A stretch of DNA of 64,000 nucleotides. Origin: Octopus vulgaris. Lineage: Eukaryota. Below, one piece after another: positions 12,217-58,342 of the stretch. A model generated the notes under the pieces. It was not told the origin of the DNA and searched no databases. It was given only the letters and a program-made list of their open reading frames with translations. The DNA is taken from positions 58,652,001 through 58,716,000 of the forward strand of contig OX597820.1 in NCBI GenBank assembly GCA_951406725.2, given 5' to 3'. Position 1 is the first letter of the stretch. Every line of letters begins with the position of its first letter. Both the position numbers and the translations under genes were made by a program.

Positions 12217-12289
<73 letters not shown>

Positions 12290-12291
<2 letters not shown>

Positions 12292-12850
12292 TCGCTCAGT
12301 CGAAGTCGACTCTTGGTTACTCGTTGGATCAGTGTCCTCCAGTCAGTTCTATCCTGGGCCGCTTCTTTCAGATTGGCTATGTCCATTCCGGTATCCCACT
12401 TGATGGTGTCAAGCCAGCGGGTTCTTGGTCGGCCTCTTCCTCTCTTGCCACTGACCATTCCGAGCATGATGTCCTTCTCCAGGGATCTTCTCCGCATAAC
12501 ATGACCGAAATATGCCAATCTATGCTTGGTGATCCTAGCTTCTAGCGACATTTTCGGCCTGATCTGCTTAAGAACTTCTCCATTGGTGAGCCTCGCTGTC
12601 CATGGAATCCGCAAAAGTCTTCTCCAACACCAAAGCTCGAATGCATTAATTCTCTTCTGGTCAGCTTTATTTAGTGTCCAGGTCTCGCATCCATATGTTG
12701 CTATTTTGAAGACAATTGCATTCACCAACCTGCATTTGGTAGCGAGTCTGATGTCTCTACTCTTCCAGACCCTGCTCATGCTGACCATTGCCTCTCTGCC
12801 TAGTACTACCTGCCGTCTTATTTCTGGAGTGCAGTCACCATCTCGATTTA
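12290..12850 (-). mobile_element. RTE-clade LINE 3' fragment with (GATA)n tail
   Basis: RVWKSRDIRLATKCRLVNAIVF..YGCETWTL...FELWCWRRLLRIPWT...YFGHVMRR..GRPRTRWLD, typical RTE/BovB ORF C-terminus. Confidence 0.9.
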
Positions 12851-13848
12851 TTTTGTGTATCCAACATGTAAATGCAAGTGTTGGTCATATAAATTATTTA
12901 AACTACATTCCGAAGCTTTCCTCATTGTTTTCCTTTGATATCGTCCAACACACCTATATTCATTTGCTTCACCAATACCTTTAGCTTCACATCCCGCTAC
13001 AATCCGTTAATCGTTAATTAACGAAGTTAACATTTTTGTTAACGATTTAACTTTTAAGTTAACTTTGAAAATCATCATCGGACTAATTAACTTCCGTTTC
13101 ATTTAGCTTCTGTTAACTCAAAAATTTCCTAAAAACCGGTAAACTTTTAAAAGTTTCTATTGTTTTCAGATTGTCTTAGCATATTTAATAATGTACGCGT
13201 CATTTTCAGGGTTTTTTTTTTACACACACACATAACAATCTCGCTCGGTTGGGACTACAAGTGCGTTACTTTGACATCATCATTCCATAAAATTTGTTTA
13301 TGGGAAGAAAAATACGGAAAAATATCAATAGATGTGTAAGAAAGAAACGAGGAGGGAGGTTTGAGGATGTGCTAGAAACAACAGCCAGATCTCCCTTAAA
13401 TCAAACATTTTCCTCTGAAATTATTAACAATTTTTTTAAAACCGAAAATGTTTCTCTCGCGGGTTTTTAAGTGCGTGCATGGCCAAAATCGTTTCGAACT
13501 GCGCTGGTGAGGGGTGGCGGGAGTAGAAAAACAAATTTTCAAACCTTTTTTGTTTTCTCGTGAAAATGCTTCCTATCATCCTGAAGACTTTGGTGAAAAA
13601 CATTGGACAAAATCCCAACATATGTGGGCCGTGGTTAATCCCCAGTGTTTGACCCGAGCAAAAAAATGAAGAAAAAAATTGTGTAACAGGTGTAAAACAA
13701 CATGTAGTAAACGAATATGGAAAAAAAAACTGCGTGCTGGCGAACGGGAGTGGTGGAGACGACTCGGAAAATTCACATCGGGTGAATTCCGAGTCCTCTC
13801 ACCACTTCCCCGTTCGTCTACGCAATTTTTTTTTTCTTCATATTCGTT

Positions 13849-13896
<48 letters not shown>

Positions 13897-14294
13897 ACTT
13901 GTTTCAGTCATTTCACTGTGGCCATGCTGGAGCACCGCCTTTAAGTCGAGCAAATCGACCCCAGGACTTTATTCTTTGTAAGCCTAGTACTAATTCTATC
14001 GGGGGTTTTTTTTTTTGCCGAACCGCTAAGTTACGGGGATGTAAACACAGAAGCGATGTTGGGGAGACAAACACTTGGCAAAATTATTAATTAATTTATT
14101 GATTTTTACCCTTTGTATTCAATATTTCTGGCAACATTCGTCAATTTCTTGAAAATAGGATTATAACCCCCGAAATATTGAATAGAAGATAAGTCTACAT
14201 TAATTCACATATTTGTTTTCTTGTGATATACCTTGCATTTGCTTCGCATTGTTTTGACCTTACCCACGATCCTTTATACAATATATATATATAT

Positions 14295-14689
14295 GCGCAG
14301 GAGTGGCTGTGTGGTAAGTAGCTTGCTAACCAACCACATGGTTCCGGGTTCAGTCCCACTGCGTGGCACCTTGGGCAAGTGTCTTCTACTATAGCCCCGG
14401 ACCGACCAAAGCCTTGTGAGTGGATTTGGTAGACGGAAACTGAAAAGAAGCCCGTCGTATATATGTATATATATATATGCGTGTGTGTGTTTGTGTGCCT
14501 GTGTTTGTCCCCCTAGCATTGCTTGACAACCGATGCTGGTGTGTTTATGTCCCCGTTACATAGCGGTTCGGCAAAAGAGACCGATAGCATAAGTACTGGG
14601 CTTACAAAAGAATAAGTCCCAGGGTCGAGTTGCTCGATTAAAAGCGGTGCTCCAGCATGGCCGCAGTCAAATGACTGAAACAAGTAAAA

Positions 14690-14690
<1 letters not shown>
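14295..14690 (+). mobile_element. SINE family 1 (tRNA-derived, internal microsatellite), full-length
   Basis: A-box-like tggctgtgtgg, B-box-like ggttcagtccc, 3' ...cagtcaaatgactgaaacaagtaaaag; many copies in the window. Confidence 0.85.
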
Positions 14691-14744
<54 letters not shown>

Positions 14745-15053
14745 TGTATGTATGTATGTATGTATGTATGTATGTATGTATGTATGTATGTATGTATGTA
14801 TGTATGTATGTATAATTATATTCTTGTTTGTATTTGTAATTGTGTACTATGTTCTCTGGTTTTTTTTTGTCTTTGTTGCCGTACACATTCGCTAGCTTTC
14901 TTACAAAAACGAGTTTGGTCACCCGATGCTATAGAAGACACTTGTTCAAAGTGCCATGCAGTGGGACTGAACCAGGAACCACTTGATTGGGAAATGAACT
15001 TCTTACCACACACACACACACACGTAACTATATACATATTGTGTACCCATGTG

Positions 15054-15085
<32 letters not shown>

Positions 15086-15253
15086 CGAAAGTGAAAGTGT
15101 AAGAGGGGAGAAGAAAATTATTTTTAGTGCGTAATATATATTCAAAATATGTTGTCATACCATTTGTGACTGACGAATTGTTTACGTAAGATATTTCTCG
15201 GAAAAGTGTTTCTTGGAAAACTGATTTTTTTTTTTTTTGAATCTCACTAGAAG

Positions 15254-15358
<105 letters not shown>

Positions 15359-15457
15359 GCTTGTTCTAAGTGTCTAGGCGAGTTCGTATCCGGTTCCGTG
15401 TATTTCTCCATTCACTTTATTTATGTTTACAACGACGACTTGAAAACAAGCTACAGC

Positions 15458-15541
15458 ATGTTTGCTTCGGAATTATTTACCATTTTGACAGTTTTCAATG
15501 CCACCCTGCACCAATATGGATATGAAGCTCACCCATTTGCG
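15458..15541 (+). CDS. MMACHC: MMACHC/CblC-like paralog B, coding exon 1
   Basis: ATG at 15458, MFASELFTILTVFNATLHQYGYEAHPFA then |gtaac; resembles the CblC N-terminus (..TLCPFGFEVYPFQ), with the intron at the homologous phase-0 position. Confidence 0.75.
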
Positions 15542-15548
15542 GTAACAT

Positions 15549-16095
<547 letters not shown>

Positions 16096-16124
16096 ATAAT
16101 AATAATCCTTTTTACGGAAGGCAC

Positions 16125-16710
16125 AAGGCCTTGACATTTTGGGGGCGGGGACCAGTTGATTACACTGGTACTTAATTTATCGACCCCGAAAGGATGAAAG
16201 ACAAAGTCGACCTCGGCGGAATTTTAACTCAGAACGTAACGGCAGACGAAATACTGCTGAGCATTAAGGCGGCGAGCTGGCAGAAACGTTAGCATGCCGG
16301 GCGAAATGCTTTGCGGTATTTCGTCTGCCGCTATGTTCTGAGTTCAAATTCCGCCGAGGTCGACTTTGCTTTTCATCCTTTCGGGGGTCGATTAAATAAG
16401 TACCAGTTGCGCACTGAGGTCGATATAATCGACTTAATCCGTTTGTCTGTCCTTGTTTGTCCTTTCTGTGTTTAGTCCCTTGTGGGTAGTAAAGGAATAG
16501 GTATTTTGTCTGCCGCTACGTTCTGAGTTCAAATTCCGCCGAGGTCGACTTTGCCTTTCATCCTTTCGGGGTCGATAAATTAAGTACCAGCTGCGTCCTG
16601 GGGTCGATATAATCGATTGGTCCCCTCCCCCAAAATGTCGGGCCTTGTGCCAAGAGTGGAAAAGAATACAGCTGCGCATTTCGTCCAGCGTGGTAACGAT
16701 TCTGCCAGCT
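16125..16710. mobile_element. Nested SINE family 2: sense copy (16267-16666) inserted into an antisense copy
   Basis: Antisense body at 16125-16265 resumes at about 16681; aatactgctgagcatt / aatacagctgcgcatt flank the inner copy as a degenerate TSD. Confidence 0.75.
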
Positions 16711-16784
16711 GAGGTTAAATAGTAATTCCGTTTACATTTGTGTTACTGAGATATTTTGGTTAGATTATAGTCATTCTTTCTCTC

Positions 16785-17190
16785 TTTTTTACTTGTTTCA
16801 GTCATTTGACTGCGGCCATGCTGGAGCACCGCCTTTTTTTACTCGAGCAAATCGACCCCGGGACTTATTCTTTGTAAGCCCAGTACTTATTCTATCGGTC
16901 TCTTTTGCCGAACCGCTAAGTGACGGGGACGTAAACACACCAGCATCGGTTGTCAAGCAATGCTAGGGGGACAAACACAGACACACAAACACACACACAC
17001 ACATAAATATATATATATACATATATACGACAGGCTTCTTTCAGTTTCCGTCTACCAAATCCACTCACAAGGCATTGGTCGGCCCGGGGCTATAGCAGAA
17101 GACACTTGCCCAAGATGCCACGCAGTAGGACTGAACCCGGAACCATGTGGTTGGTTAGCAAGCTACTTACCACACAGCCACTCCTGCGCC
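16785..17190 (-). mobile_element. SINE family 1, full-length
   Basis: Reverse complement of the 14295-14690 consensus. Confidence 0.85.
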
Positions 17191-17519
17191 TATATTGGTG
17201 TTACATTACTTTGGTGTTACATCATTGGTGTTACATTACTTTCTATATTCTGTAACTGTCACAATATACTTTTCTAGGCCTGAAATTTTTGCGGGGAGGG
17301 GGCCAGTTTATTAGATCGACTCCAGTACACAACTGGTACTTTATTTATCGACACCGAAAGGACGAAAGGTAAGGTCGACCTCAGCAGAATTTGAACTCAG
17401 AACGTAAAGATAGACGGGTCATAACATGCAAGCATTTCTCATGGCCCCAGTACACTGTTTACAGATGTTTACATTTTTTTATGTTTGCCGTGAATTTTTC
17501 ACGGGTCCAACTAGTTATT

Positions 17520-17561
<42 letters not shown>

Positions 17562-17566
17562 GCTGC

Positions 17567-17611
<45 letters not shown>

Positions 17612-17620
17612 TATTATTAT

Positions 17621-17915
17621 GGCGGCGTGCTGGCAGATTCGTTAGTGCACCGGATGAAATGTTTAGCGGTATTTCGTCGCCGAGGTCGACTTTGTCTTTC
17701 ATCCTTTCGGGGTCGATAAATAAAGTACCAGTTACGCACTGGGGTCGATATAATCGACTTAATCCGTTTGTCTGTCCTTGTTTGTCCCCTCTATGTTAAG
17801 TCCCCTGTGGGTAGTAAAGAAATAGGTATTTCGTCCGTCGCTACGTTCTGAGTTCAAATTCCGCCGAGGTCGAGTTTGCCTTCCATCCTTTCGTGGTCGA
17901 TAAAATAAGTACCAA
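17621..17915 (+). mobile_element. SINE family 2 copy with duplicated core (antisense copy nearby at about 17277-17440)
   Basis: ggcggcgtgctggcagattcgttag... followed by two gtcgactttg..catcctttcg cores. Confidence 0.75.
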
Positions 17916-18140
17916 TAATCGTCGCATCCTCTCTCACAAAATTGCTGCCCACGCCGAACTTCAGCCTTTAGTAGAAAAATGCGGAAATTCCACAGAACGA
18001 AAAAGTTGAAGAGAAGCTATATAAGAAAGAAGGAAAGAAAGAAAAAGAAGGAAAGAAAGAAAGAAAGAAAGAGAAAGAAAGAAATATTTTTATTTTGCCA
18101 ATATATTTCACTCCAGTCACAATAATACATCATATGATTT

Positions 18141-18452
18141 TTTTTATGCGCCCTTTTCAAGTCTAGCCAGGCTCATGGGCCCGGTTTCCTGGTTTCTGTG
18201 GCGTATGTGTTCCCACCAGCTGGACGGGACGCCAGTCCATCGCAGCATTACCCAAGAAACAGGAAGAAAAAGTGAGAGAAAGTTGAGGCCAAAGAGTAAA
18301 ACAGGGTTCACCACCACCCTCTGCCGTAGCCTCTTGAAGCTTTAGGTATTTTCGCTCAATAAACAGAAACAACGCCCGGTCTGGGAATCGAAACCGCGAT
18401 CCTCCGACCGCGAGTCCGCTACCATAACCACTGGGCCATTGCGCCTCCATAA
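18141..18452 (-). mobile_element. SINE family 3 (ggaggcgcaatggcccagtgg...), with TSD catatgattt
   Basis: tRNA-like head on the minus strand; direct repeats at 18131-18140 and 18453-18462. Confidence 0.8.
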
Positions 18453-18634
18453 CATATGATTTCAGCACTTTATATTTTTCTCTTTGTCTCTGCCTCTTAA
18501 ACCAGGCAAATTCCTCCCTTCCTTCATGTCTTTAACATTTTTCTCTATTTCTTCACATTTCCCTCCCCACTCTACAGCACGTCATTAACACTTCCCTCTC
18601 CCACTTTTCTCTCGCTCTTCGCTTCTCTCTTCAA

Positions 18635-19025
18635 AGTGGAGGCGCAATGGCCCAGTGGTTAGGGCAGCGGACTCGCGGTCGTAGGATCGCGGTTTCGATT
18701 CCCAGACCGGGCGTTGTGAGTGTTTATTGAGCGAAATCACCTAAAAGCTTCACGAGGCTCCGGCAGGGGATGGTGGTGATCCCTGCTGTACTCTTTCACC
18801 ACAACTTTCTCTCACTCTTACTTCCTGTTTCTGTTGTACCTGTATTTCAAAGGGCCGGCCTTGTCACTCTCTGTGTCACGCTGAATATCCCCGAGAACTA
18901 CGTTAAGGGTGCACGTGTCTGTGGAGTGCTCAGCCATTTACACGTTAATTTCACGAGCAGGCTGTTCCGTTGATTCGGATCAACCGGAACCCTCGTCGTC
19001 GTAACCGACGGAGTGCTTCCATCCA
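18635..19025 (+). mobile_element. SINE family 3, full-length, 16-bp TSD
   Basis: A box tggcccagtgg, B-box-like gtttcgattccc; TSD tcgcttctctcttcaa at 18619-18634 and 19026-19041. Confidence 0.88.
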
Positions 19026-19483
19026 TCGCTTCTCTCTTCAACTAACTGTGTGATGCATTTGGCCTTAGTGTTTTATTAATACATCTTCTCTACTCACAGA
19101 CACACATTTTTCTCCGATTCCACCAGGGCCAGATTTAAACTATGGGGGTCTCAGTGCACTTCAAGTTCGGTGGGCCCCTTATACACAAAAATCAAAATCA
19201 ATACTACACAAGAAGAGTGGACCCTACGCGCGCACCCGCGCTAATCAGTAGACGGACGCGTGCACACGCACAAGTCAGTGGCAATCGCAAAAAAAAAAAA
19301 AAAACCCTTCACGTTTGTAAATATGTGTAAACTGTAAATTGGGGAAGGGGATTTAGTGTACTCCCATCATACTCTTGAATCTGCGTTCGTTCCTGGTTTA
19401 ATATACTTTCTGATAAGTGAGAGTAGAGTGTAAAGGAGGAACGATCATTCACAAACACTAAAAATCCTATTTTGTCTTCTCTT

Positions 19484-19562
<79 letters not shown>

Positions 19563-19575
19563 GTTTATCTATCTA

Positions 19576-19957
19576 TGTGGCAGAGGCGCAACAGGGCAAC
19601 AAAGCCACCATTCGGTCTCTGGTAGATGAACAGGGGCGCGAATTGCTCGAGCCAAGTCAAATGTGTGAGGCCTTTCAGCAGCATTTTGCCCGACTGTTCG
19701 GGACGAGTGGCGGGCAAGAACGTATGGTGGACTTCAGTGCCTACCTACAGAGCCTACCACGACTCTCGACAAGAGAAGCAGGGCGCTGCGAAGGTGCCAT
19801 CACGGCGGTGGGAGTGCAGGACGCGATGGCAGAATGCTCGAGGGACAAATCGCCGGGTTTGGATGGTCTACCCTACGAGCTTTACAGCTGTATGCCAGAC
19901 TTGTTTGGAGACGTCTTGGCAGCGGTGTTCTGCAACTGGCAGCAAAATGGGAACATT
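19576..19957 (+). mobile_element. Tx1/L1-like LINE ORF2 fragment (truncated by deletion); full counterpart at 49349-51181
   Basis: ...KSPGLDGLPYELY... pre-RT motif; begins directly after (TATC)n at 19484-19575. Confidence 0.85.
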
Positions 19958-20234
19958 TATTTTTTACTTCCTCTTTATGACCTGTACTTATGTAAGAACT
20001 CAATCGTTGTTTGCTTATTTATACTTTTATTCTATTAATAATGTATCTTTTCAAATGATAAGCAGACTATATCCAATCGTCATTAGCCAGCTATAACACA
20101 AAAACCCTTAGATTTCAGTTCAAGTTCGAGTTTTAGGCAGCAAACAACTTGAGCATTAATTGCATATACCTATTACTTCTTCTAACGAGATATTACCTGA
20201 ATTCTATATATATATATATTGTTATTTTATCCAG

Positions 20235-20441
20235 GTGAGATGCTACAACGATATTAAATCAATGAAACCCTCGTTCCGTCTGAAATACAGTCGAAATACA
20301 CTGGCCCTAACTGTTGTTGCAGCACCAGATATGTTCGAGAAAGCATTGATTCCATGTATTTGTAAATCAAATGTTACCGTTCTCCTAGACGGAGACCCGA
20401 CTGATAACTGTAACCAAAAATATTTCAAGAAATTCTTCGCT
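20235..20441 (+). CDS. MMACHC: MMACHC/CblC-like paralog B, exon 2
   Basis: ccag| ... |gtaagt; 69 codons VRCYNDIKSMKPSFRLKYSRNTLALTVVAAPDMFEKALIP...DPTDNC..., aligning to CblC VAWYN...FHL...TLAFLVLSTPAMFDRALKP...DPVDQC. Confidence 0.85.
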
Positions 20442-23428
20442 GTAAGTCTCTAAATATTTCACATTTACGATTAGTGCTCTGTTCATCGGTGGGGTGTTTA
20501 GACTGAAACCAATTCATTGATTAAAATCAGTTAACTTTACAAAAAGCAGCATGAACGTCACAATTTTCCCATTTTGTTTTTCCATAAAAGTTTATTATGT
20601 ATTTGCTGGACCTTTAGAAACAGCAGGGGTATCTCGCTTAAGCCTGCTTGTCCAAAGCATTTTCATAAATTTGTCCTAAATGTCCATGTTTGTTTCCAGA
20701 CTTTTAGTTAGCCCTTGAGTAATAGCAATCTTTCGTTTCAATAATTCCAAGTTCCTCTAACGGTTGAAAAGAATTGGGAATGTGTACCAAGTCTGATGCA
20801 GGACACCGGCAAAATATATCACATATGATAGACAAAACTGGCAAAAGGTTAAATAATACTCAATTGTGTTTTTAGAAAAGCGTATCTGATAGTATGTTCT
20901 TATGCTGACATTATAGTCACAGCTAGAATGCCCTTAATCATATAAAAGGGCTAACTACAACTACATTAAAGTTTGATAAAAAGGAAGCATATACTTGGTC
21001 ACTCGACCTGTCAGAAATAGTAACCAAATTTCCATAAATTTACAACCTACCATCAAAATAGTGGAGGGACACTGGATCAGGGTGATCTAGATATATTGTT
21101 TCTGAGAAAAGAATTGACCGAGATGCTCACATCTGGAGTATAATTCGGCTCAATCAAGACTGAACTGACGCAAGAACCAAAAAAAAAACGACTCATAGAT
21201 AATTCTATATTTCCTTTGCCAATATCTGTACAGTTTAGTCTAAACACCAATTTTTTTACAACCAATCCTTCTTTCCCAAAATTTCAGTCTTTTGGCTCTT
21301 TCTTTCATGCTCAGACTATGCAGGTTATATAATAGAGACACGAAGCAGTGCTGTGGAATCAACAAACTTTCAGATTAGTCCAAATATGTTTGAAACATAT
21401 TTGACTGGTAAAAAGGCCTTTTCCACTACATTTTGCCATGGAGAAAAATTCTTGTTTTAGGCAACACCAAGTCATTTCAGAGTTGTCGTACTTGGTATCC
21501 AGTATTGACAATAGTTAAGATGCTTGAAATTCATTCATCGATCCTGTTGCTTAAAGTGAGAATTTTCTCCATGGTAAACCACTGTGAAAATGGCCTTTTT
21601 TTATATGGCAAATATATCCCAAATATATTTGAAGTTATCTCAAAGTGTGTTTATCTATGCAGGAATTTGAGCTAAACTTAAACTGCACTAATCCTCTTCA
21701 TCTGGGCATTCTAAATGAGCATTGCCTCACGTTCCATTGGCTTTCATAGAATAACGATAAATGTAATACCGGTTATAATGTGCAGTCAAAGACTTCTTCG
21801 TAAATTGTAATCTTCGGGCCAAGAACGAAATCGTCTGTTTTATATCATGATAGAGCAGTGGAGTTGACAAATACGTAGATTGTTAGACGAATGTGTTTAT
21901 ATACGTTTCTTAGGGTTCTACGTTCAAATTCCACCGAGGCCACTTTACACTTCTTCCAACCAGGAGCAGTGAAATAAGTGCCAGGGACATTTAATATACA
22001 CATATTTAATATATGCGTATATGTTTGGGAGGATTTATTCTTTTATTTGCTTCAGTCATTTGACTGCGGCCATGCTGGAGCACCGCCTTTAGTCGAACAA
22101 ATGACCCCAGGACTTATTCTTCGAAAGCCTGGCACTTATTCTATCGGTCTATTTTGCCGAACCGCTATTGTTACGTGGACATAAACATACCAACATCGGT
22201 TGTCAAGCGATGGTGGGGAGACAAACACAGACACACAAATACATACATACATATACATATATATATTGGCATCCTTTCTGTCTCGGGAGACAATGGAGTT
22301 GCGCATTTTTTTTTTTTTTTTTTGTAGTCTAGTCCGGCTTTTATATTTCATGTCCTGGTACATTTCCTGCTGTGGCTGTGTAGTCCTATCCTGGACAAAC
22401 ACTCCCTCTGGCAGGTATATATATATATCGGTTGTCAAGCGATGGTGGGGAGACAAACACAGACACACAAATACATACATACATACATACATACATACAT
22501 ACATACATACATACATACATACATACACACACACACATATAAAGAAATTTGTGGGGAAAAAATGCTTTTTTTCGGAAGGGGTGGGGAGAGGACTGTCGGA
22601 AAGTTCACACGATCTGTTTTATTCACTCTTAACTTTCAGGATCTAGTTTAGCGCCCGGTCACCAAAACGAAAAAAAAAAAAAAAAAAACAGTCTATAGGA
22701 GTAAAAAAAAAATGTGTAGAAAACGAATATGAAAACAATAAATTTGCGCAAACGAATGTGGAAAGAGGAAATGACGGAAATTGGGGTGGGGGGTAATTTA
22801 GAAATGTCGATTTTTGCCAATGTTTTTGCAGATTCGTATTCCCTCGAGAAGTGGGGTTTGTGACGAAAAAAAAAAAAATTTAAGGGTGGTGGTGAGGGGG
22901 GGGGGGCGAAGTCTGGCCGTAATGTATTATATTACACACTTTTACACTTTTACACTCTTTTGCCGAACCGCTAAGTGACGGCGAGGTAAACACACCAGCA
23001 TCGGTTGTCAAGGGGGACAAACACAGACACACAAACATACACACATATAAATATATATACATATATACGACGGGCTTCTTTCAGTTTCCGTCTACCAAAT
23101 CCACTCACAAGGCTTTGGTCGGCCCTAGGCTATAGTAGAAGACACTTGCCCAAGATGCCACGCAGTGGGACTGAACCCAGAACGATGTGGTTGGTAAGCT
23201 ACTTACCACACAGCCACTCCTGCGCCTGAATATATGTTACACAAATGTATGCTTCATAATACCGTTTTAATGATATTATTTAATATGTAATTTCCGCATC
23301 CTATATATTACACAGTTGTCTGTCACAACGATGCTTGCGACACCCAATTACACACGCTCATGTGAATCCCTCTTCACTTCGCTGTAGATTTGAACTCTTT
23401 CCTATTTGAATTTTTTGTTTCAATACAG

Positions 23429-34605: not shown

Positions 34606-35036
34606 TAGGTACGTACGTACATACATATGCGTATGATTGTATATATGTGTGTGTGTATAAATAAATAAATATGTATGTATGAATGTATGTGTGCATGTTA
34701 ACTCAGTATTGAGGATTCTGTTGTTTCATGTAACCGTTGAGATTTGATTTGCGACCTGAAAGTAAGTATTGAGTGCACAAGAGAAAGTGACTGTGAACTG
34801 TTTTAAAGGAGAAAATTGAGATTACGAGAAAACGCAATTTTATTAATTTACACAACACTGCCATTTCTCAAAATGATTTGAAATAAAATACGATATTTCT
34901 TTTCGTGGTTTGGTTTGGTTTGCATCATTGGATTTCTGAAAGAGTTACTATTCTTTTAATGTTATAACTATTATGAGGAATTTGGAAGAAAATCTTTAGA
35001 ATTTACTTTCAAGCTTCATAGACACAAACAAAATCC

Positions 35037-35631
35037 CTAAAAAGGTATAAAGGCTGGAAGAATATTCTTAAAGAAATACGCGTATCGCCCTTCTTTGCAT
35101 GATTTTTCCGTTTCTCTAACTATTGAAATTGTCTGACTTAATTTTGAAGAGAAATATTGTTTTGCTTCCTCAGAAAACGGTTGCCTTCCCGGCATAAAAG
35201 AAGCATGTCGCCATTCCATAGTACCTATTTCTTTATTACCCACAAGGGGCTAAACACAGAGGGGACAAACAAGGACAGACATAGGTATTAAGTCGATTAC
35301 ATCGACCCCAGTGCGTAACTGGTACTTAATTTATCGACCCCGAAAGGATGAAAGGCAAAGTCCACCTCGGCGGAATTTGAACTCACAACGTAACGACAGA
35401 CGAAATACGGCTACGCATTTCACCCGGCGTGCTAACGATTCTGCCAGCTCGCCATTCCATAGTACCATTGTGTAGTGACTGTAGAACATATCTTCTATGT
35501 TCATGAGATGGAAGGGCATCGAATGGGAGAGGATAAAGAAGACTGGGCAGTTTGAAATCTCGAAAAACAATCACTGCTGGGACAGTAAACCATGCGCCAT
35601 ACTTGTGATGGACTGCAAATTCAAGTGGCTT
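35037..35631 (-). CDS. MMACHC: Divergent MMACHC/CblC-like paralog C, terminal exon 4, interrupted by a SINE (35226-35448); pseudogene allele or new intron
   Basis: ttacag|KPLEFAVHHKYGAWFTVPAVIVFRDFKLP...HNGTMEWR[SINE]HASFMPGRQPFSEEAKQYFS...F*; the frame is open on both sides once the 241-nt insertion is removed. Confidence 0.78.
35226..35448 (-). mobile_element. SINE family 2 inserted in copy C exon 4, with a perfect 18-bp flanking direct repeat
   Basis: tcgccattccatagtacc at 35208-35225 and 35449-35466. Confidence 0.93.
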
Positions 35632-36454
35632 CTGTAAATAGACGAGAAAACATCATGAGGACACATAATAATAATTTCTGGCCATTTTTTAAAAAATTAT
35701 TATCTAATCTTTGGTGTTGACGTCACCGATTTTTTTAATTATGAAGAATGATAAAATAAATTCCATTTTTGCCAGCGTAAAAGTATAAAAGTATAAAATA
35801 ATTGTTTTGACAATATAAAGCTCAAAGGTACAAAGGTAAAGACAGGGCCAGCCTAAACTTACCACCTACCCTCATTCTTCTGTGTAAAAAATAAGTTGAC
35901 ACGCCCAATTACCAAGGGCTTAAATACTGAGCTGTGTACCTTAGATATTATATTGTCAAGCGAAAGGATTAAATGCAGTAATGCCAAAAGCGCCCAAAAT
36001 GCTTTCAAACCTTGTGCCCACTTATCTAAAGAGAAACACCTACAAGCTTGTTTACCAATTGCTATACGCATGAATAAATTCCAAACACTAACATATCCCC
36101 AAATTTAATCAATGAAAAATTTTCCAAAACCCCTTTCCATAACAACTGACTACAAAAACCTAATTACTATTCACTAGAGCAGCGGGTGGGGACGGTTCGC
36201 CCCGGGCGGTACTTTTAAAAAGGTGGCACTTTTGGGTCTGCTGTAGGCTACAGATGATTAAAACTCAACAGGAACTATATAAAAGCAAGACCGACGATGG
36301 GTTGGCTGGCCGAAACTTCGAAGTCGCTGTCAACAACATTCTTGTGTAAGAATACAAAATTTGCACTTTACAAAAGAATGGAGTGACCCATCAGATTAAT
36401 ATGAAATTGATTTTATTATAACTGAACATAAAAACAAACACTAATATATGTACA

Positions 36455-38286: not shown

Positions 38287-38424
38287 CTTTGTCTTTGGCC
38301 AAGTATAATGCAGGACATCAGATTGAGTATATCGGTAAGCAACACCTGTGACGTGTGCGGCTATATTGGTATTAAGATTGCTGTGATGTCCACGCACGTT
38401 TCCGAGAATAATATCGACGTATTC
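38287..38424 (-). CDS. MMACHC: Divergent MMACHC/CblC-like paralog C, exon 3
   Basis: Minus strand tttcag|EYVDIILGNVRGHHSNLNTNIAAHVTGVAYRYTQSDVLHYTWPKTK|gtaagt; retains AAHVxG.AY.Y...DV...TWP..K and the same phase-0 donor position as copies A and B. Confidence 0.8.
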
Positions 38425-40180: not shown

Positions 40181-42671
40181 CAGGGGTGGGCGAACTTTTT
40201 TGATCGCGGGCCGCACAGTGCGTCTTTGGAACCTTGGCGGACCTCATTTATAAAAATCAAGTGAAAATATATTTAAAGGCGGTTATAGACCTATAAACAT
40301 ACAATTGATTGAAAGGAAATTTTGTGAAATATTCCTGGTTTAAGTGATTTAATTTATTTTTTAGAGTATCGGGTTCATGTTTTTCGGTTATTTGCTCCTA
40401 TAGTTGAAATTATTACAGGAACCTCGGTTATTTTGGACAGCCTGTTATCGCTTACAAATTGCCAGGAACGGAATTTTCCTAGTAAAATCTGCACTAATTG
40501 TGGACAACCACCTCTTAATATTATGGACAACCATGATGAATATTATACTTAAATTCTAGGATACCCAAAATAAAAGATTTTAAAGAGAAATAACAGTTTA
40601 TTAATATGAATTGATATCTGAAATTAGAAACGTCACCTGAAGCATTTATTTGAAGAACAAAGCGGCTCTGTAAATAACAATGTCAATGAGAATGATGCAG
40701 CTGACTACTGTCATTTACCAGTTTGTCAAAATTAGGTGTCAAGTTGCTTGTGCTGATTCTTAACACTGACTGAAGATTTGAGTCTGTGAGAAGTGATCGA
40801 TTCTTCCCCTTGTTAATTTTCATGATGGAGAAAGTCTGCTCACATATGTAAGTTGATGCAAACAACACAAACATCTTTCTTGCAAATTTTTTTTGATTTT
40901 GAAACTTTTTTGAATGTAGAGAAGCATAAAACTCGACCAGTGGTTTACTTTCAAACATCATCTTTAAAGAATTGTCGGCTTGCAAATGAATCAGTTCTAT
41001 CTGCAGTTCCTCGGTAGTTGTTTCAATGTCACAGGCAAGAGGTGAGTTAAGCAAATCGAACAGGCCTTCAACTGCCTTGAAATCAGCAAATCTTCTAATG
41101 AATTCCTTTTGTAAAGCCATCAACTGGGAACTGTACTTGTCCGATGATTCTTGTGTAACAGACTGTGTTTTCAGCAGAGGGAAGTGAATAATTTTTTGCT
41201 CATTCAGCTGCTTGGCAAAAAGTCCGAGCTTCCATTGAAAAGCTTTCACTTCCAGGTACAATTCATGAGCAAATATACCTTTGCTTTGCAGATTTGTGTT
41301 AAGTTCATTCAGCTTCTGCATTATGTCCACAGCAAATGCAAAATCACAAACCCATTCGTCACTCTCCATTTTGTTTAAAAAGTCACAGGAGATGTCTTGC
41401 AGTTTGAGAAATATAAGAATCTCTGCTTTGAGGTCCCATACTCTCTTAAGAACTTTTCCAATGCTTAACAAGCGGACATTTGTGTAGTACAGCACATCAG
41501 TAAAATCAGCCTCCACATCCTCCAAGAAACTTCGGAATTGCCTGTGTTTCAATCCCCGTGATCTTATTAAATTCACTGCACGCACCACAGGTTCGATGAC
41601 ATGTTTGAGTTTTAAAGATGACTTACAAAGGCTTTCTTGATGTATGATGCAGTGAAAAGACAACACACTGTGTAGTGGAAAATCTTCTTTGATTTTGTCA
41701 TTCAACAACTTCACAAGGCCGGAATGTTTACCGGTGAGTGAAGGAGCTCCATGGGTTGTAATGCTGGCCAGTTTATTTAGGGTTAATCCAGACCTGATTG
41801 AACTGTTAATGACACTGTTGAACAAATCTTTTCCAGTAGTAGTGTCTTTGAGAGACGCCATAGATAACAATTCCTCTGTAATTTCAAAGTTTTCGTCAAT
41901 TCCTCTGATGTAAATGAGTAACTGAGCAGTATCCTGAATATCAGTACTCTCATCTAAAGCAATAGAAAACCACTGAAATCGACCACTGGCTGTTAACAGC
42001 TGTTCATGAATACTTACGGCAATTGCATCAATGCGACGAACAATAGTTCTTCGTGACAGGGAAATGGCTTCTACGTTTGACTTAACTTCAGGACACACAA
42101 CGCTGACAGCATCAACCATACAATCTTTGATAAATTCTGCTTCTGCGAATGACTTGTTTTGCTGTGCAATTTTGTTGGCCAATATAAAACTTGCTTTTGT
42201 CGCGTTCCTTTGTAAAGAGGAAGTTTTATCAAACACATTTTGCTGTTGCTTCAAACGTTTTGTCAGATCATTTGCTTTCTTTTGCAGTTCTTGTTTTGAT
42301 AAATTGTGTCCAAAATTGGCGTGCTTCGTTTGAAAGTGGCGTTTCAAATTATATTCCTTGAACACAGCAACTGTTTCAGAACAAATCAAACATGCAGCTT
42401 TCACTCCAACGTCGGTAAAGAAATACTTTTCAGTCCAATTTTCATTAAAAACACGACATTCTTCTTCAATTTTTCGCTTTTTAGATAGCTTCGAACAACT
42501 CATTTTGGGTAAATTTTATCAGACAACAAAAGCTAGTTTGAAACACTCGTGTCTGTACTAAATTCAAATAATCGATAGAGTGAATGATAACCAACCACAG
42601 CTCTGTGTCCAGAAAAAGCTGGTTCAAGCCCTTTTATTAACATGGCCGTCTTCTTCATTGGAACGAAACGC
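40181..42671 (-). mobile_element. hAT DNA transposon (Buster/SPIN/GTF2IRD2-like), one TIR visible
   Basis: caggggtgggcgaac TIR after a gtctagag target-like octamer at 40173-40180; no second TIR seen before the duplication breakpoint at about 42672. Confidence 0.8.
40683..42503 (-). CDS. hAT transposase, 606-aa open ORF (GTF2IRD2/SPIN-like), probably catalytically inactive
   Basis: N-terminal zinc finger CLIC...KEYNLKRHFQTKH, FSIALDESTD, HCIIHQE, STYICEQTFS; TTDG->TTHG and RWLS->RLLS substitutions. Confidence 0.9.
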   Translation of the reverse strand: MSCSKLSKKRKIEEECRVFNENWTEKYFFTDVGVKAACLICSETVAVFKEYNLKRHFQTKHANFGHNLSKQELQKKANDLTKRLKQQQNVFDKTSSLQRNATKASFILANKIAQQNKSFAEAEFIKDCMVDAVSVVCPEVKSNVEAISLSRRTIVRRIDAIAVSIHEQLLTASGRFQWFSIALDESTDIQDTAQLLIYIRGIDENFEITEELLSMASLKDTTTGKDLFNSVINSSIRSGLTLNKLASITTHGAPSLTGKHSGLVKLLNDKIKEDFPLHSVLSFHCIIHQESLCKSSLKLKHVIEPVVRAVNLIRSRGLKHRQFRSFLEDVEADFTDVLYYTNVRLLSIGKVLKRVWDLKAEILIFLKLQDISCDFLNKMESDEWVCDFAFAVDIMQKLNELNTNLQSKGIFAHELYLEVKAFQWKLGLFAKQLNEQKIIHFPLLKTQSVTQESSDKYSSQLMALQKEFIRRFADFKAVEGLFDLLNSPLACDIETTTEELQIELIHLQADNSLKMMFESKPLVEFYASLHSKKFQNQKKFARKMFVLFASTYICEQTFSIMKINKGKNRSLLTDSNLQSVLRISTSNLTPNFDKLVNDSSQLHHSH

Positions 42672-45034: not shown

Positions 45035-47529
45035 TATATATATATATATATATACCTGCTGTTTGTCCAGGATAGGACTACACAGCCACAGCAGGAAATG
45101 TACCAGGACATGAAATATAAAAGCCGGACTAGACAAAAAAAAAAAAAAAAATGCGCAACTCCATTGTCTCCCGAGACAGAAAGGATGCATGTATGTATTT
45201 GTGTGTCTGTGTTTGTCTCCCCACCATCGCTTGACAACCGATGTTGGTATGTTTATGTCCCCGTAACAATAGCGGTTCGGCAAAAGAGACCGATAAAATA
45301 AGTGCCAGGCTTTCGAAGAATAAGTCCTGGAGTCATTTTTTCGATTAAAGGCGGTGCTCCAGCATGGCCGCAGTCAAATGACTGAAGCAAATAAAAGAAT
45401 AAATCCTCCCAAACATATACGCATATATTAAATATGTGTATATTAAATGTCCCTGGCACTTATTTCACTGCTCCTGGTTGGAAGAAGTGTAAAATGGCCT
45501 CGGTGGAATTTGAACGTAGAACCCTAAGAAACGTATATAAACACATTCGTCTAACAATCTACGTATTTGTCAACTCCACTGCTCTATCATGATATAAAAC
45601 AGACGATTTCGTTCTTGGCTCCAAGATTACAATTTACGAAGAAGTCTGTGACTGCACATTATAACCGGTATTACATTTATCGTTATTCTATGAAAGCCAA
45701 TGGAACGTGAGGCAATACTCATTTAGAATGCCCTGATGGAGAGGATTAATGCAGTTTAAGTTTAGCTCAAATTTCTGCATAGATAAGCACACTTTGAGAT
45801 AACTTCAAATATATTTGGGATATATTTGCCATATAAAAAAAAGGCCATTTTCACAGTGGTTTACCATGGAGAAAATTCTCACTTTAAGCAACAGGTGTTA
45901 AAACACAACAATAATTTTAGAATGCTTCCTGTGAATCGATGAACGAATTTCAAGCATCTTAACTATTGTCAATACTGGATACCAAGTGCGACAACTCTGA
46001 AATGACTTGGTGTTGCCTAAAACAAGAATTTTTCTCCATTGCAAAATGTAGTGGAAAAGGCCTTTTTACCAGTCAAATATGTTTCAAACATATTTGGACT
46101 AATCTGAAAGTTTGTTGATTCCACAGCACTGCATCGTGTCTCTAATATATAACCTGCATAGTCTGAGCATGAAAGAAAGAGCCAAGAGACTGAAATTTTG
46201 GGAAAGAAGGATTGGGTGTAAAAAAATTGGTGTTTAGACTAAAGTGTACATATATTGGCAAAGGAAATATAGAATTATCTATGAGTCGTTTTTTGTTTGG
46301 TTCTTGCGTCAGTTCAGTCTTGATTGAGCCGAATTATACTCCAGATATGAGCATCTCGGTCAATTCTTTTCTCAGAAACAATATATCTAGATCACCCTGA
46401 TCCAGTGTCCCTCCACTATTTAGATGGTAGGTTGTAAATTTATGGAAATTTGGTTACTATTTCTGACAGGTCGAGTGACCAAGTATATGCTTCCTTTTTA
46501 TCAAACTTTAATGTAGATGTAGTTAGCCCTTTTATATGATTAAGGGTATTCTAGCTGTGACTATAATGTCAGCATAAGAATATACTATCAGATACGCTTT
46601 TCTAAAAACACAATTGAGTATTATTTAACCTTTTGCCAGTTTTGTCTATCATATGTGATATATTTTGCCGGTGTCCTGCATCAGACTTGGTACACATTCC
46701 CAATTCTTTTTAACCGTTAGAGGAACTTGGAATTATTGAAACGAAAGATTGCTATTACTCAAGGGTTAACTAAAAGTCTGGAAACAAACATGGACATTTA
46801 GGACAAATTTATGAAAATGCTTTGGACAAGCAGGCTTAAGCGAGATACCTCTGCTGTTTCTAAAGGTCCAGCAAATACATAATAAACTTTTATGGAAAAA
46901 CAAAATGGGAAAATTGTGACGTTCATGCTGCTTTTTGTAAAGTTAACTGATTTTAATCAATGAATTGGTTTCAGTCTAAACACCCCACCGATGAACAGAG
47001 CACTAATCGTAAATGTGAAATATTTAGAGACTTACAGCGAAGAATTTCTTGAAATACTTTTGGTTACAGTTATCAGTCGGGTCTCCGTCTAGGAGAACGG
47101 TAACATTTGATTTACAAATACATGGAAGCAACGTTTTCTCGAACATATCTGGTGCTGCAACAACAGTTAGGGCCAGTGTATTTCGACTGTATTTCAGACG
47201 GAACGAGGGTTTCATTGATTTAATATCGTTGTAGCATCTCACCTGGATAAAAGAACAATATATATATAGAGAGAGAGAATTCAGGTAATATCTCGTTTGA
47301 AGAAGTAATAGGTATAAGCAATTAATGTTCAAGTTGTTTGCTGCCTAAAACTCGAACTTGAACTGAAATCTAAGGGTTTTTGTGTTATAGCTGGCTAATG
47401 ACGATTGGATATAGTCTGCTTATCATTTGAAAAGATACATTATTAATAGAATAAAAGTATAAATAAGCAAACAACGATTGAGTGGTTACATAAGTACAGG
47501 TCATAAAGAGGAAGTAAAAAATAAATGTT
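45035..47529 (-). repeat. Inverted duplication block 2 (mirror of about 19952-22428)
   Basis: Near-identical reverse complement, including B exon 2 and ORF pairs 21077..21265/46212..46400 and 21978..22184/45253..45459. Confidence 0.95.
47036..47242 (-). pseudogene. MMACHC: Duplicated copy of paralog B exon 2 (orphan exon in the inverted arm)
   Basis: Intact cag|/|gtaag sites, 207 nt, 2 aa differences from 20235-20441 (KALIP vs KTLLP); the matching exons 1, 3 and 4 are absent from this arm. Confidence 0.8.
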
Positions 47530-47811
47530 TGTAACTAACCACTTTCAACCTTCGTATACTGGTAGAATGTGTCACATAAAACATCTTGGCGTTGATGAGA
47601 AAATTCTGTATTTTGGAAATTATTTCTTGTTAAAGTTGTCGTATTTCGGTAATTTCAACCAATCAATGACGTGTATTCAGCTGAATAAAATTACTGCTGT
47701 TGTTTGTGATAACAACTTATTTATGACATCGATTGTGCGTTTGTACTGGTTTTAGCTTTAAGATTTTAGAGTTAGGGTTAGGGTTTTAGGGTTTGACAGC
47801 ATCATAACAAA

Positions 47812-49035
47812 AGCCTACTGGAAGCAGAACGGAAGAATTCCTAGTACTGTTAGCCGGAGTGTGGTAACACTGCTGAGAAAGGACGCCGACAATGGGGACG
47901 TCCTAAGGAATTTTTGGTCCAAAACGCTACTGAACACAGAATCTAAAATTTTGGTCAAGATATTAGCGAAAAGGTTGGCGTTTGTCGTTGCTAGTCTGAT
48001 CGAGGATGCACAAACATGCGCAGTCCTGAGCAGGTCTATCCACGACAACCTCCACCCTATACGATACATCATAGAGAGGGCTGGGACTAAAGCTGGCTTC
48101 GATGGGGTCCTGATCTTTTATATCAGTCGAAAGCTTTCGATAGAGTAGACCATCGCTACTTGGAAGACGTCCTTAAAGCAGTCGATTTCTGACCCGTTTT
48201 CTGAGGCTGGATTGCTGCAATGCACAGCGGCACCTGCTCGGTGGTCAAAGGAAATGGCTACCAACTGGAACCGTTTAGTATCGCACATTCGGTTCGTCAG
48301 GGCTACCCACTGTCACCTCTTCTATATGTCCTGGCTCTCGAGCCACTTCTGCGGAAGTTGGAACAGTTAAGAGGTCTCCTTTCTAAATTGGACTCGGAAG
48401 GGTAGTGTCAGCGTACGCGGACGACGTCACTATCATGGTGTTGGACGCCTCCGAAGTGGAGACGGTCAACTCCATTGTAACGACCCGATGCGGTTGCTCC
48501 ATGTCCACATTGGCACATTCGGGAGGTCGAGTCGGTACCTGTCAGACAGTTGCAAACGTATGAGCAGGTCTTTGAGGCATTTACATCCCCACCTATTCCC
48601 AACTCTACCCACAGTCTCGGTGCACGTCTAAGGTAGCGTTCCAATCCCCCACTAAAAGTAAAGGTCGGAACATTCCCAGGAAAACCTCTAGATGTCGAAA
48701 GAAATCCAGCCGACCTGTTCAGGACGGTGCATAAGCTGTTATCAGTCGAAAAGAACACCCATTACTGCCATCGACATCCAAGACGACCAGCCTACCTTCC
48801 GGGTCTAGGAATATTGTTCTTACTTTGATGTCCAGACTCATCCGAAAAAGCACCGCGGTACCTCCTCGGCACATTCTCGGCAGACACGGAGAAAAATAAA
48901 TGTCGAATTGTCCGCCGAACATGTGCTCGAGGACCCGTAGGTTGTGGAGTCTGGTCTCACTGATAGCTATGATATCTACATTCTATGTCTTGATGTCATC
49001 TAACAAGTAGCCTTGTTTCCAAGGTGACCCCTAGC
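47812..49035. mobile_element. Degenerate Tx1/L1-like LINE: RT fragment on + (47812-48480) and APE endonuclease start on - (49035-48480)
   Basis: LLNTESKILVKILAKRL, VRQGYPLSPLLY and AYADDV on +; CINVRG...GGTAVLF...DPEGRLVVLDV on -. Confidence 0.8.
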
Positions 49036-49348: not shown

Positions 49349-51181
49349 TGTTTCTTTATTAGCCACACAGGGGCTGAACACAGACGGGACAAATTACAAG
49401 GTAGAGCTTTTGTTTTTGGGGAGAAAAAAAGGGGGGGTAGGTTTTCGATCAAAAGGGATCGTAAAAAGGAAATAAAAGAAAAAAGACGATCAATAGGGAT
49501 CGTGTATCAAAGAAATATCATGATATAGAGTGTAAAGGGGGAAACAGATGAGGTTTATTCGTGGAAAGAAAAGCCTACGGGAAAGACCACCGTAACCTCG
49601 GTCAATAATATCTGGAAGTTGTCCGTAGGTCCCGGCCCGAAAGTCGACTTAAACAGGCGGGTCTACGTAGAGCCGGAGGTGTTGCAGTCTCAGCGCGTGT
49701 CTGCGCATCATCAACCGCGGCATGCCCAGACCTTTTAACGGGTGTTGACAGCAAATGGATCGCCTGACCATCGGGACGCATCCTTTCCACAAGAAGCGAA
49801 AGAGAATGCGTTCTAATTTGCTGATGGTAGGGCCGGGACAAGGTACGACGGTCAGGCGGTAGTAGATGACGGACGCGATGTACGTGTTCGCCACCTCCGC
49901 CCGACCTTTTAGGGACAGTTTCCTCTCGGCCCCTTGCCGGGCGAGAGTGACCACCCTACTCGTTATCTCGTTCCAGTTCTTCTCCATTTGGCGGTCCGGA
50001 CCAAACCAGACCCCGAGCAACTCGACCGGACCGTCGGTCCAGCGTCCCACGAACGAGGCGCTGGTGGACGGCATGGGCTTGCTTGTCCAGGTGCCGAGTC
50101 GCAAGCCCACTGACTTTTCCCGGTTGATTTTTCGCTCCTGTCACCGCTTCGTAGTCTTTCAGAGTCCCGCCGACCAGCTCGATGTGCTCGTGGCTAGACA
50201 CTATGACGGTGACGTCGTCCGCGTATGCAGATACGCTCGTCCCGCATACCAGTTCTCGCGGGATGCCCCACAGAGTTGCCAGCTTCCGCAATAATGGCTC
50301 GAGAGTCAATACGTATAGAAGCGATGAGAGGGGGCATCCCTGACGGACCGAACGTGCAATGTCGAAAGGTCTCGATAGATGTCCATTCACGCGAATTACC
50401 GAACGGATGCCTCTGTACAAAGCGGCTATCCAGCCGCGGAAGACGGGACCGAAACCAGCCGCTCCGAGGACAACCTCCAAGTATCGATGGTCCACCCTAT
50501 CGAAAAATTTCGATTGATCCAAATTGATCAGGGCCCCACCCATGCTAGGTTCCTTAACTACCTTGTCTATGATGTAGCGTATCAGGTGGAGGTTGTCATG
50601 GATGTTCCGGCCCGGCACGGCGCACGTTTGAGCCTTGTCGACCAGTTTCTCGATAACAAGCGCCAACCTCTTGGCTAACACCTTGGCCAAAATTTTCAAG
50701 TCTGCATTGAGCAGAGTGATGAGCCTAAAGTTATCTATTACACCCCCTTGTTTAGATCTTTCTTCAGCAGTGTTACGGCTCCTCGGCTCAAAAAATCAGG
50801 AATGTTCCCATTTTGCTGCCAGTTGCAGTACACCGCTGCCAAGACGTCTCCAAACAAGTCTGGTATACAGCTGTAAAGCTCGTAGGGTAGACCATCCAAA
50901 CCCGGCGATTTGTCCCTCGAGCATTCTTCCATCGCGTCCTGCACTTCCGCCGCCGTGATGGCACCTTCACAGCGCCCTGCTTCTCTTGTCGGGAGTCGTG
51001 GTAGGCTGTGTAGGTAGGCTCTGAAGTCCACCATACGTTCTTGCCCGCCACTCGTCCCGAACAGTCGGGCAAAATGCTGCTGAAAGGCCTCACACATTTT
51101 ACTTGGCTCGAGCAATTCGCGCCCCTGTTCATCTACCAGAGACCGAATGGTGGCTTTGTTGCCCTGTTGCGCCTCTGCCAC
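49349..51181 (-). mobile_element. 5'-truncated Tx1/L1-like LINE (RT domain plus 3' end) embedded in (GATA)n
   Basis: KSPGLDG, KILAKVLAKRL, SVRQGCPLS, AYADDV, LGVWFG; 3' end tgtgtggctaataaagaaa; GATA repeats on both sides. Confidence 0.9.
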
Positions 51182-51195
51182 ATAGATAGATAAAC

Positions 51196-51245
<50 letters not shown>

Positions 51246-51267
51246 ACAAATAGATAGATAGATAAAC

Positions 51268-51319
<52 letters not shown>

Positions 51320-52199
51320 GGATAGATAGATATCCGTTTACTACATGTTGTTTCTTTCATATTCGTTTATTAAATGTTGTTTTACACCTATTACACAATT
51401 TTTTTTTTCATTCTTTTGCTCGGGTCAAACACTGGGGATTAACCACGGCCCACATATGTTGGGATTTTTTCCAATGTTTTTCACCAAAGTCTTCAGGATG
51501 ATGGGAAGCATTTTCACGAGCATTTTTCTACTCCCGGCTCCCCTCACCAGCCCAGTTCGAAACGATTTTGGCCATGCACGCACTTAAAAACCCGCGAGAG
51601 AAACATTTTCGGTTTAAAAAAAAAATTGTTAATAATTTCAGAGGAAAATGTATGATTTAAGGGAGATCTGGCTGTTGTTTCTAGCACATCCTCAAACCTC
51701 CCTCCTCGTTTCTTTCTTACACATCTATTGATATTTTTCCGTATTTTTCTCTCCATAAACAAATTTTATGGAATGATGATGTCAAAGTAACGCACTTGTA
51801 GTCCCAACCGAGCGAGACTGTTATGTGTGTGTGTGTAAAAAAAAACCCTGAAAATGACGCGTACATTATTAAATATGCTAAGACAATCTGAAAACAATAG
51901 AAACTTTTAAAAGTTTACCGGTTTTTAGGGAATTTTTGAGCTAAATGAAACGGAAGTTAATTAGTCCGATGATGATTTTCAAAGTTAACTTAAAAGTTAA
52001 ATCATTAACAAAAATGTTAACTTCGTTAATTAACGATTAACGGATTGTAGCGGGATGTGAAGCAAAAGGTATTGGTGAAGCAAATGAATATAGGTGTGTT
52101 GGACGACATCAAAGGAAAACAATGAGGAAAGCTTCGGAATGTAGCTTAAATAATTTATTTGACCAACACTTGCATTTACATGTTGGATACACAAAATAA

Positions 52200-57034: not shown

Positions 57035-58252
57035 AAGTTTCTTTATTGGCCACACAGGACTGCACACAGATGGGACAAGTTACAAGGTAGAGCTTTTCTT
57101 TTGGGGGATGAAAAAAAAACAAAAGACAAAAAACAAAAGAAACAAAAAAAAGGTGGCGTAGGCAAAAGCGATCGTAAAAGGGAAAAAAAAGAACAAAAAA
57201 TAATAAAAAAAAAGGAAAAGGAACAAAAGAAAAAAAAGAAGAAAAAAAGGGAGGGGGAAGGGGAAGAGGAAAAAAACCGTCAATAGGGATCGTGTATCAC
57301 AGTGTTATGATGTATGGTGTAAAGGGGAAAGCAAGTAAGGTTTATCCGTGGGAAGAAAAGCCTACGAAAAAGACCACGGTAACCTTGGTCAATATTGTTA
57401 TATGTTACCACATTTGTTTGCAAGTGGGTAACCCTCTGTTTTCAATTTCTGGGTTCATAGGATTATGCTCAAGGTGGCTTCGTCATTCATACGTGCTACA
57501 TACGTACAGTATCACTGGGTACTTGCTGCATTCACCCATCTTTTTTTAAAACATTCGCTAGACAAAACTTGCCTCTCTACTCTCACTTTCCTTTTCAAGT
57601 GGTACTTGAAGAAGTTGATGAGAGATTGACCAGAGGGGAAAGTGTTTGTCTCCAATCCTTTCAGACGCGTCCACCAGATACATTCTTTCGCCATAGCCAC
57701 AAGGATGATGAAAATAGCTCTTCCTTCCCGTTTGAAGGAAGGAGGCGTGACAATATTGACGATAGACTCAACTGATAAACCGACTCGTCCCACACGTGAC
57801 AGCAGTTGTTCGACATAAGCCCACAGGTCGGAAATTGTTGGACATTGTACGAGTGCGTGCAGAACGGTTTCGTCGCTCTGGCCGCATCTCGGGCAGGTCG
57901 GCCCCGTGTTTCTCGAGCCGTGTCTGTAGAGCTTATCCCGAACGGGTAGCACTTCTCGGTAGCACTGCCAGGCCAGGATTCTCTGGAAGTTGTCCATGGG
58001 CCCTGGCCTGAAAGTCGTCCTGAACAGACGGGTCAGGTACTCCTCGTCGACGTCCAGGTTCGCCCCGAGCTCGTCGTCGTACCTCCCCTCCACTAATCCC
58101 CTATAGAATGCTTTAGTTGTGATGAAGTCACTCAAGGTCGACCCAGGACGGCAGAGTTGCTTGAGAGCAGCGCGACACTCGCGGTGCCATTCGCCCTTCC
58201 TCGGCCTCTTTTTGATCCACGATTGCAGTTCGGTCATGGAGACGAGCTGCGG

Positions 58253-58256
<4 letters not shown>
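57035..58256 (-). mobile_element. 5'-truncated Tx1/L1-like LINE (C-terminal zinc knuckle plus 3' UTR) embedded in (GATA)n
   Basis: ORF 57512..58237 with CPRCGQSDETVLHALVQC; 3' UTR similar to 49349-49607; GATA repeats on both sides. Confidence 0.88.

Positions 58257-58342
<86 letters not shown>

Follow-up and report, generated by a model that had tools for sequence, protein, structure and literature searches.

In a 64,000-nt window of Octopus vulgaris DNA (the window being the whole stretch analysed), one of three paralogs of the vitamin-B12-processing gene MMACHC, copy C, carries a SINE insertion in its last coding exon. We conclude that this is most probably an ordinary insertional null in which the GT..AG borders of the inserted segment are a by-product of an ATAGGTA tail priming on a GGTA target, and that copy C is likely non-functional. 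The element is flanked by an 18-bp target-site duplication (TSD), its tail overlaps the target by 4 nt, SINE-free copies of the gene exist as DNA and are expressed, and the copy that carries the SINE (the filled copy) has further lesions. The earlier note had offered two readings, a knockout allele or the ongoing gain of an intron through an introner-like SINE. The knockout is supported, whereas intron gain found no support, given splice signals at the level of decoys, an RNA junction that comes from SINE-free copies, and the other lesions of the filled copy.

A SINE in the last exon of MMACHC copy C

The three MMACHC (CblC, PF16690) paralogs in the window, A and B on the plus strand and C on the minus strand, were assigned to the family by a PF16690 profile match and by likeness to solved structures; the O. 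bimaculoides ortholog of copy C (XP_014782766.1) matches human MMACHC chains with an E value of 7.7e-25. Apart from residues at the exon joints, the exons of A and B in the window correspond to the O. vulgaris proteins CAI9725732.1 (A) and CAI9725735.1 (B), and copy C is about 34-36% identical to both. Among protein database candidates, 0 of 11 and 0 of 203 matched the window's own copy C, a weak negative to which we give no weight. Where the human protein has Arg161 and Arg206, residues that have been linked to glutathione binding (PMC9464900), the aligned positions hold Pro and Ala in all three paralogs; judged from these substitutions, the chemistry of the octopus paralogs may differ from that of the human enzyme. 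The features of copy C and its surroundings are as follows.

35467..35631, minus strand: copy C last exon, portion 5' of the insertion (PF16690, E 1.3e-08)
35449..35466, minus strand: 5' TSD copy, 18 bp, source of the proposed donor G/GTACTA at 35465 (a slash marks a junction)
35226..35448, minus strand (gene sense): SINE body between the TSD copies, 79-89% identical to four other near-full-length copies in the window
35383..35385, minus strand: stop codon if the SINE is retained, reached after 21 SINE-derived residues
35250..35291, minus strand: TTAAT resembling a branch point (A at 35288), with a pyrimidine tract and a TTTAG acceptor that ends at 35250
35232..35237, minus strand: AATAAA hexamer at the 3' end of the SINE; the other four aligned copies read AGTAAA
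35225..35465, minus strand: proposed (putative) 241-nt GT-AG intron, one of 19 exact registers
35208..35225, minus strand: 3' TSD copy, 18 bp, whose first G completes the proposed acceptor AG (35226-35225)
35037..35224, minus strand: copy C last exon, portion 3' of the insertion, ending at TAG 35039-35037
38287..38424, minus strand: copy C exon 3, lacking two residues (NN) present in the O. bimaculoides and O. vulgaris database proteins
40683..42515, minus strand: uninterrupted hAT-type transposase frame of 610 codons (Spin-doc zinc finger at E 6.3e-08, with a weak hAT dimerisation domain)
47036..47242, minus strand: B-type exon 2 within an inverted segmental duplication, without exon 1; the sole MMACHC exon upstream of C exon 3 within the window

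On the minus strand the copy C exon reads CAC AAT G/GTACTA...AAAGAAATAG/GT ACT, and deleting 35465-35225 (241 nt) yields HNGTMEWRHASF. The same sequence is unbroken in the intact O. bimaculoides ortholog, whose exon is continuous at the insertion point, and paralogs A and B are intronless at this position; the transposable element thus lies inside a coding exon. The junction, the 241-nt length, the regeneration of the exon to the nucleotide, the absence of an intron here in A and B, and the stop (35385-35383) after 21 SINE-derived residues are all as the earlier note had described them. The two TSD copies (35466-35449 and 35225-35208) are identical, and the ends of the SINE overlap them, by GGCGA at the 5' end and GGTA at the 3' end. 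Against the majority of the four other window copies the SINE differs at 13 of 225 columns, a crude figure. The identity of the TSD copies and the lack of fixation (see below) point to an insertion that is young but not datable.

The element has some of the hallmarks of a SINE. It is short, non-coding, interspersed and of high copy number, with 22 matches in the window and more than 100,000 contig records per DNA run, and nearly all of the depth of the DNA runs over the region falls on it. Its TSDs vary in length (18 bp here, repeats of 9-10 bp at two other copies), and terminal inverted repeats are not needed to account for it. An A-box-like TGGCAGAATCG is found at 35446; searches of the SINE with a B-box pattern and, for a tRNA head, with ARAGORN gave no match, and Rfam gave one chance hit (E 8.4). 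The 3' end reads ATAGGTA in all five aligned copies, with TAGG repeats at one of them. Octopus tRNA-derived SINEs were reportedly described by Ohshima and Okada in 1994. The copy C element is like them in its shortness, great abundance, A-box-like motif and short-repeat 3' end, but differs in having no tRNA match in Rfam or ARAGORN, and we assign it to no named family. OR2 is a named octopus SINE family (PMC4758252), and SINEs have been reported to make up 11.6% of the genome of O. vulgaris, where 4544 insertions were recently active (PMC13282606).

Origin of the GT..AG borders

All 19 registers of the TSD give an identical joined exon. Because this holds for the registers of any TSD, exact restoration of the frame is trivial, and we rejected it as evidence for an intron. 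The sole non-trivial feature is that one of the 19 registers has GT..AG borders; in that register the GT does come from the first target-site copy and the AG lies at the SINE 3' end, as claimed previously. A random 18-nt target would give a GT..AG register at 3-8% of 1553 exon positions and at 4-10% of 127,964 window positions, the ranges reflecting the assumed element end. Such a register is certain when the target starts with GGT and the element ends in ATA, as at copy C, where the last four letters of the tail are the first four of the TSD.

Six of the 22 family matches in the 64 kb have a full 3' end, and five of these are independent, two being one segmental duplicate. In three of the five the tail contains the start of the flanking repeat, which measures 18, 10 or 9 nt (the repeat of 10 nt sits in a microsatellite), and all three have a GT..AG register. 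This supports the earlier suggestion that such junctions arise repeatedly through microhomology between the 3' end and GGTA-containing targets. Since two of the three are outside any exon, the copy C locus is less special. The other two independent copies have no TSD and pass into a second piece of SINE at an internal site that resembles GGTA. These copies, at 16271-16616 and 17624-17914 in B intron 1, continue directly into the second piece at an internal GGTATTT, suggesting that the tail may also prime on the family's own sequence.

An overlap between 3' end and target has been described for the clades CR1, L2 and RTE and ascribed to RNA-DNA pairing at priming (PMC6007223). At copy C, target-primed reverse transcription with pairing of tail and target at GGTA would have copied GGTA to both sides, leaving AG/GT at the 3' end and G/GT in the 5' TSD. 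We infer that the GT..AG borders follow from the mechanism of insertion, in which case selection on splicing is unnecessary. The transposon-insertion model of intron gain invokes insertion into AGGT (PMC3443670). Copy C fits this model in that the TSD and the element ends provide potential splice sites and leave the coding sequence unchanged; however, its target is not AGGT, and the AG consists of the element tail plus one nucleotide of the TSD, through the 3' overlap.

Splice signals and the SINE-less RNA junction

Donors were scored as matches to the nine-position U1 consensus; this and the acceptor comparisons are simple counts on six or seven true sites rather than scores from a trained model. 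The proposed donor, ATG/GTACTA, has four of nine matches, compared with 5-8 for the six true donors of the window (five score 6-8; that of B exon 1 scores 5 by hand count), and 60% of the 7897 GTs in the window score at least 4. Upstream of the proposed acceptor, positions -23 to -4 are 35% pyrimidine (65-80% for seven true acceptors) and the AG-free zone is 4 nt (39-74 nt for six measured true acceptors). The caveats that the GTACTA donor is weak and the bases before the AG are purine-rich were therefore well founded, and by these counts the signals fall short of the host-intron strength expected of an introner. The competing TTTAG mentioned in the earlier note is also present, but it ends 25 nt, not about 27 nt, before the proposed AG; it is out of frame, and its use would give HNAPCG followed by a stop. 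This TTTAG has 80% pyrimidines, a 67-nt AG-free zone and the branch-like TTAAT 38 nt 5' of it. There is also a third AG, in frame, 6 nt ahead of the proposed one; its use would add EI. Folding of the 241-nt insert was unremarkable (z -0.67), with no structure uniting its ends.

These signals bear on the possibility of a leaky proto-intron, in which a minority of transcripts from carriers would undergo splicing either at the exact boundaries or to the AG that precedes the proposed one by 6 nt (adding EI), giving partial rescue while most remain non-productive. Weak donors are used at low level, and a strong pyrimidine tract, 19 and 25 nt upstream of the two in-frame AGs, could serve both of them. 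However, the first AG after a branch point and tract is usually chosen, and here that AG (TTTAG) is out of frame and the donor is weak. We consider this reading unlikely.

The earlier note had proposed looking for RNA junctions that skip 35225-35465. Of 24 sequencing runs listed, all as assembled contigs, from which rare forms drop out, four (X1, X4, X13 and X14) were examined over 34750-36440. The joint 35207-35449, a 241-nt skip, was present in three of the four (X4, X13 and X14). X13 and X14 behave as spliced RNA, with zero depth in 35662-35889 and contigs that depart from the reference at 35633 and extend 531 and 426 letters further, respectively. X4 is DNA: its skip-bearing contig continues to 35658, into the intron. 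Hence, the SINE-free form exists as DNA. Compared with the window, the RNA-like contigs have 12 differences in 532 letters (X13) and 14 in 571 (X14), or 2.3-2.5%; a T at 35487 is common to both and to the SINE-free DNA, but at this position the filled contig of X1 agrees with the window. With those of the differences that are listed put in place, the RNA contigs have an open frame to GGYCLCL and a stop. Because the DNA run X4 has the same joint and the RNA contigs carry letters of the SINE-free haplotype, the skip in RNA is no proof of splicing, and we rejected it as such. The junction at the proposed boundaries, seen in both RNA-like runs, lies on SINE-free haplotypes, neither run being a proven carrier. 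The predicted skip was thus found, but not as a spliced filled copy; the SINE-less RNA junction is accounted for by expressed SINE-free gene copies. The absence of SINE-retaining contigs in X13 and X14, neither of which was shown to be a carrier, and the small-share RNA rows X18-X20 were not counted as evidence.

Some introners (for example in Symbiodinium; Gozashti et al.) carry their own 3' site and co-opt a 5' site from the TSD (10.1101/2022.06.06.494994), and copy C has the same layout at the dinucleotide level, with GT and AG at the exact boundaries. Introners are spliced and form families of at least four introns in unrelated genes, and most derive from DNA transposons, with about 82% of those classified being terminal-inverted-repeat elements and about 5% non-LTR (PMC12130899). 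In contrast, the copy C intron is putative only, and a screen of 8,716 genomes that relies on annotated introns lists no introner family for O. bimaculoides, O. sinensis or O. vulgaris, in 3 of 3 annotations (PMC12130899, as given in its supplement 7). With the shortfall in splice-signal strength, the putative status of the intron and the absence of Octopus families from that screen, the copy C SINE is not classed as an introner. A SINE-derived single intron was proposed earlier, the p-SINE1-like intron of rice CatA (Iwamoto 1999, cited in PMC3151243); for octopus, nothing on SINE-derived introns was found in the literature searched, from which most subscription papers were missing.

A broader reading takes the family as a latent retro-introner: its ATAG/GTA tail would prime on GGTA, most full-length sense insertions in exons would be born with exact GT..AG borders, and copy C would be spliced exactly in carriers, as a still unfixed animal intron. 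We regard this as very improbable. Slightly less probable again is exact and efficient splicing of copy C as a new, unfixed intron from a SINE with its own 3' site and a 5' site co-opted from the TSD. The segment has canonical GT..AG borders, a length of 241 nt, phase 1 and an exact product; its layout is that of some introners (10.1101/2022.06.06.494994); and AG/GT is supplied systematically by the SINE family. Additionally, the predicted O. vulgaris model CAI9725740.1 exits the exon at HN/E, and the acceptor phase of its next exon fits the same donor, so the gene predictor appears to have accepted the very donor of copy C, in a prediction that joins it to a distant site. Against these points stand a donor and acceptor at decoy level with a much stronger out-of-frame competitor, RNA junctions that come from SINE-free haplotypes, further lesions in the filled copy, and the zero introner families reported for three Octopus species (PMC12130899, supplement 7). 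The model CAI9725740.1 is itself probably chimeric, combining part of a hAT transposase with C exons 3-4 and the end of a hAT element in inverted orientation.

The DNA run X1 bears on the filled form. Its contig 2 (92 nt, depth 30.7) spans the SINE 5' junction with no differences and starts at 35437, exactly 12 letters into the SINE; the 3' junction is on no listed contig of the runs examined. Contig 1, downstream, terminates exactly at the TSD end. Contig 3 (92 nt, depth 29.6) has 12 letters that misfit before the TSD and four differences, and 92 nt is what an empty site would give with a 30-letter overlap between contigs (word size assumed to be 31). From these break points, X1 appears to hold both filled and empty forms, with the joint itself absent from its listing. 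Three letters of contig 3 give the PRS..I of CAI9725740.1, and this form could be an allele or a second C copy. The share of sampled words found in each run was rejected as a separator of filled and empty samples, since it is 0.73 in X4, which has the SINE-free contig, and 0.82 in X1. That no run holds all sampled words (best 0.82) and that the region is full of segmental duplications might suggest a repeat mis-assembled into the exon, but with a perfect 18-bp TSD and the difference-free X1 contig across the 5' junction this is scarcely credible.

State and meaning of the filled copy

Besides the SINE, the filled copy has a TAG (35039-35037) at codon 118 of the last exon where four of four runs read GGG, and codons 95-96 encode E and K where the same four runs read K and H. 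Singly, its lesions are mild: the stop comes seven codons early, and exon 3 has an in-frame loss of two residues. No C-type exon 1 or 2 was found in the window, including 25 kb upstream; the native first exons could lie beyond it. Upstream of C exon 3 are the open hAT transposase frame and then the B-type exon 2 that lacks B exon 1. Copy C may be a 5'-less, untranscribed duplicate that was dead before the SINE landed.

The surroundings are rearranged. A large inverted segmental duplication relates 2730-22428 to 64000-45042 in blocks that are 93-97% identical, and places the B upstream region and exon 2, not exon 1 (15458-15544), ahead of C exon 3. With these exons in phases 0/0, a chimeric B/C frame could open at an internal Met. 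Fragments that by eye, in the list of open reading frames, resemble those of non-LTR retrotransposons lie at 12288-12884, 47762-48148, 49649-51337 and 57512-58537.

If copy C is transcribed, most transcripts would retain the SINE and reach a stop after 21 foreign residues, be cleaved after the AATAAA of the SINE, or be spliced to the stronger, out-of-frame TTTAG. Each of these fates would give a truncated product, and lack of transcription would be a further route to non-function. The stop lies in the last exon, where mRNA decay is not expected. The native sequence ahead of the SINE ends with a residue that aligns just past human Trp203, and human MMACHC alleles with a stop at Trp203 or at Tyr205 are found in cblC disease (PMC9464900). 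Truncation in this region leads us to infer that the SINE-retained form would be null. Taken with splice sites at decoy level, SINE-free RNA haplotypes and the extra lesions, this makes copy C probably null.

A gene that takes an insertion in an exon is usually inactivated (PMC11282704), and copy C resembles an exonic SINE null allele or dead duplicate in having a short non-coding element, a TSD, a premature stop if the element is retained, and SINE-free copies in other samples. It differs from an ordinary exonic SINE null in that one TSD register reads GT..AG, which the family tail commonly produces. As read, the case is of little consequence, a further SINE insertion into an exon of a gene copy that is redundant. 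It does warn that, for an unfixed insertion, RNA-seq showing a skipped junction does not prove intron gain. If exact splicing were true, copy C would hold a rare, unfixed SINE-derived intron. The reusable rule is that overlap of tail and target yields GT..AG borders, and with a genome and RNA from carriers this could permit the counting of conversions from a pre-adapted retroelement to an intron in an animal.
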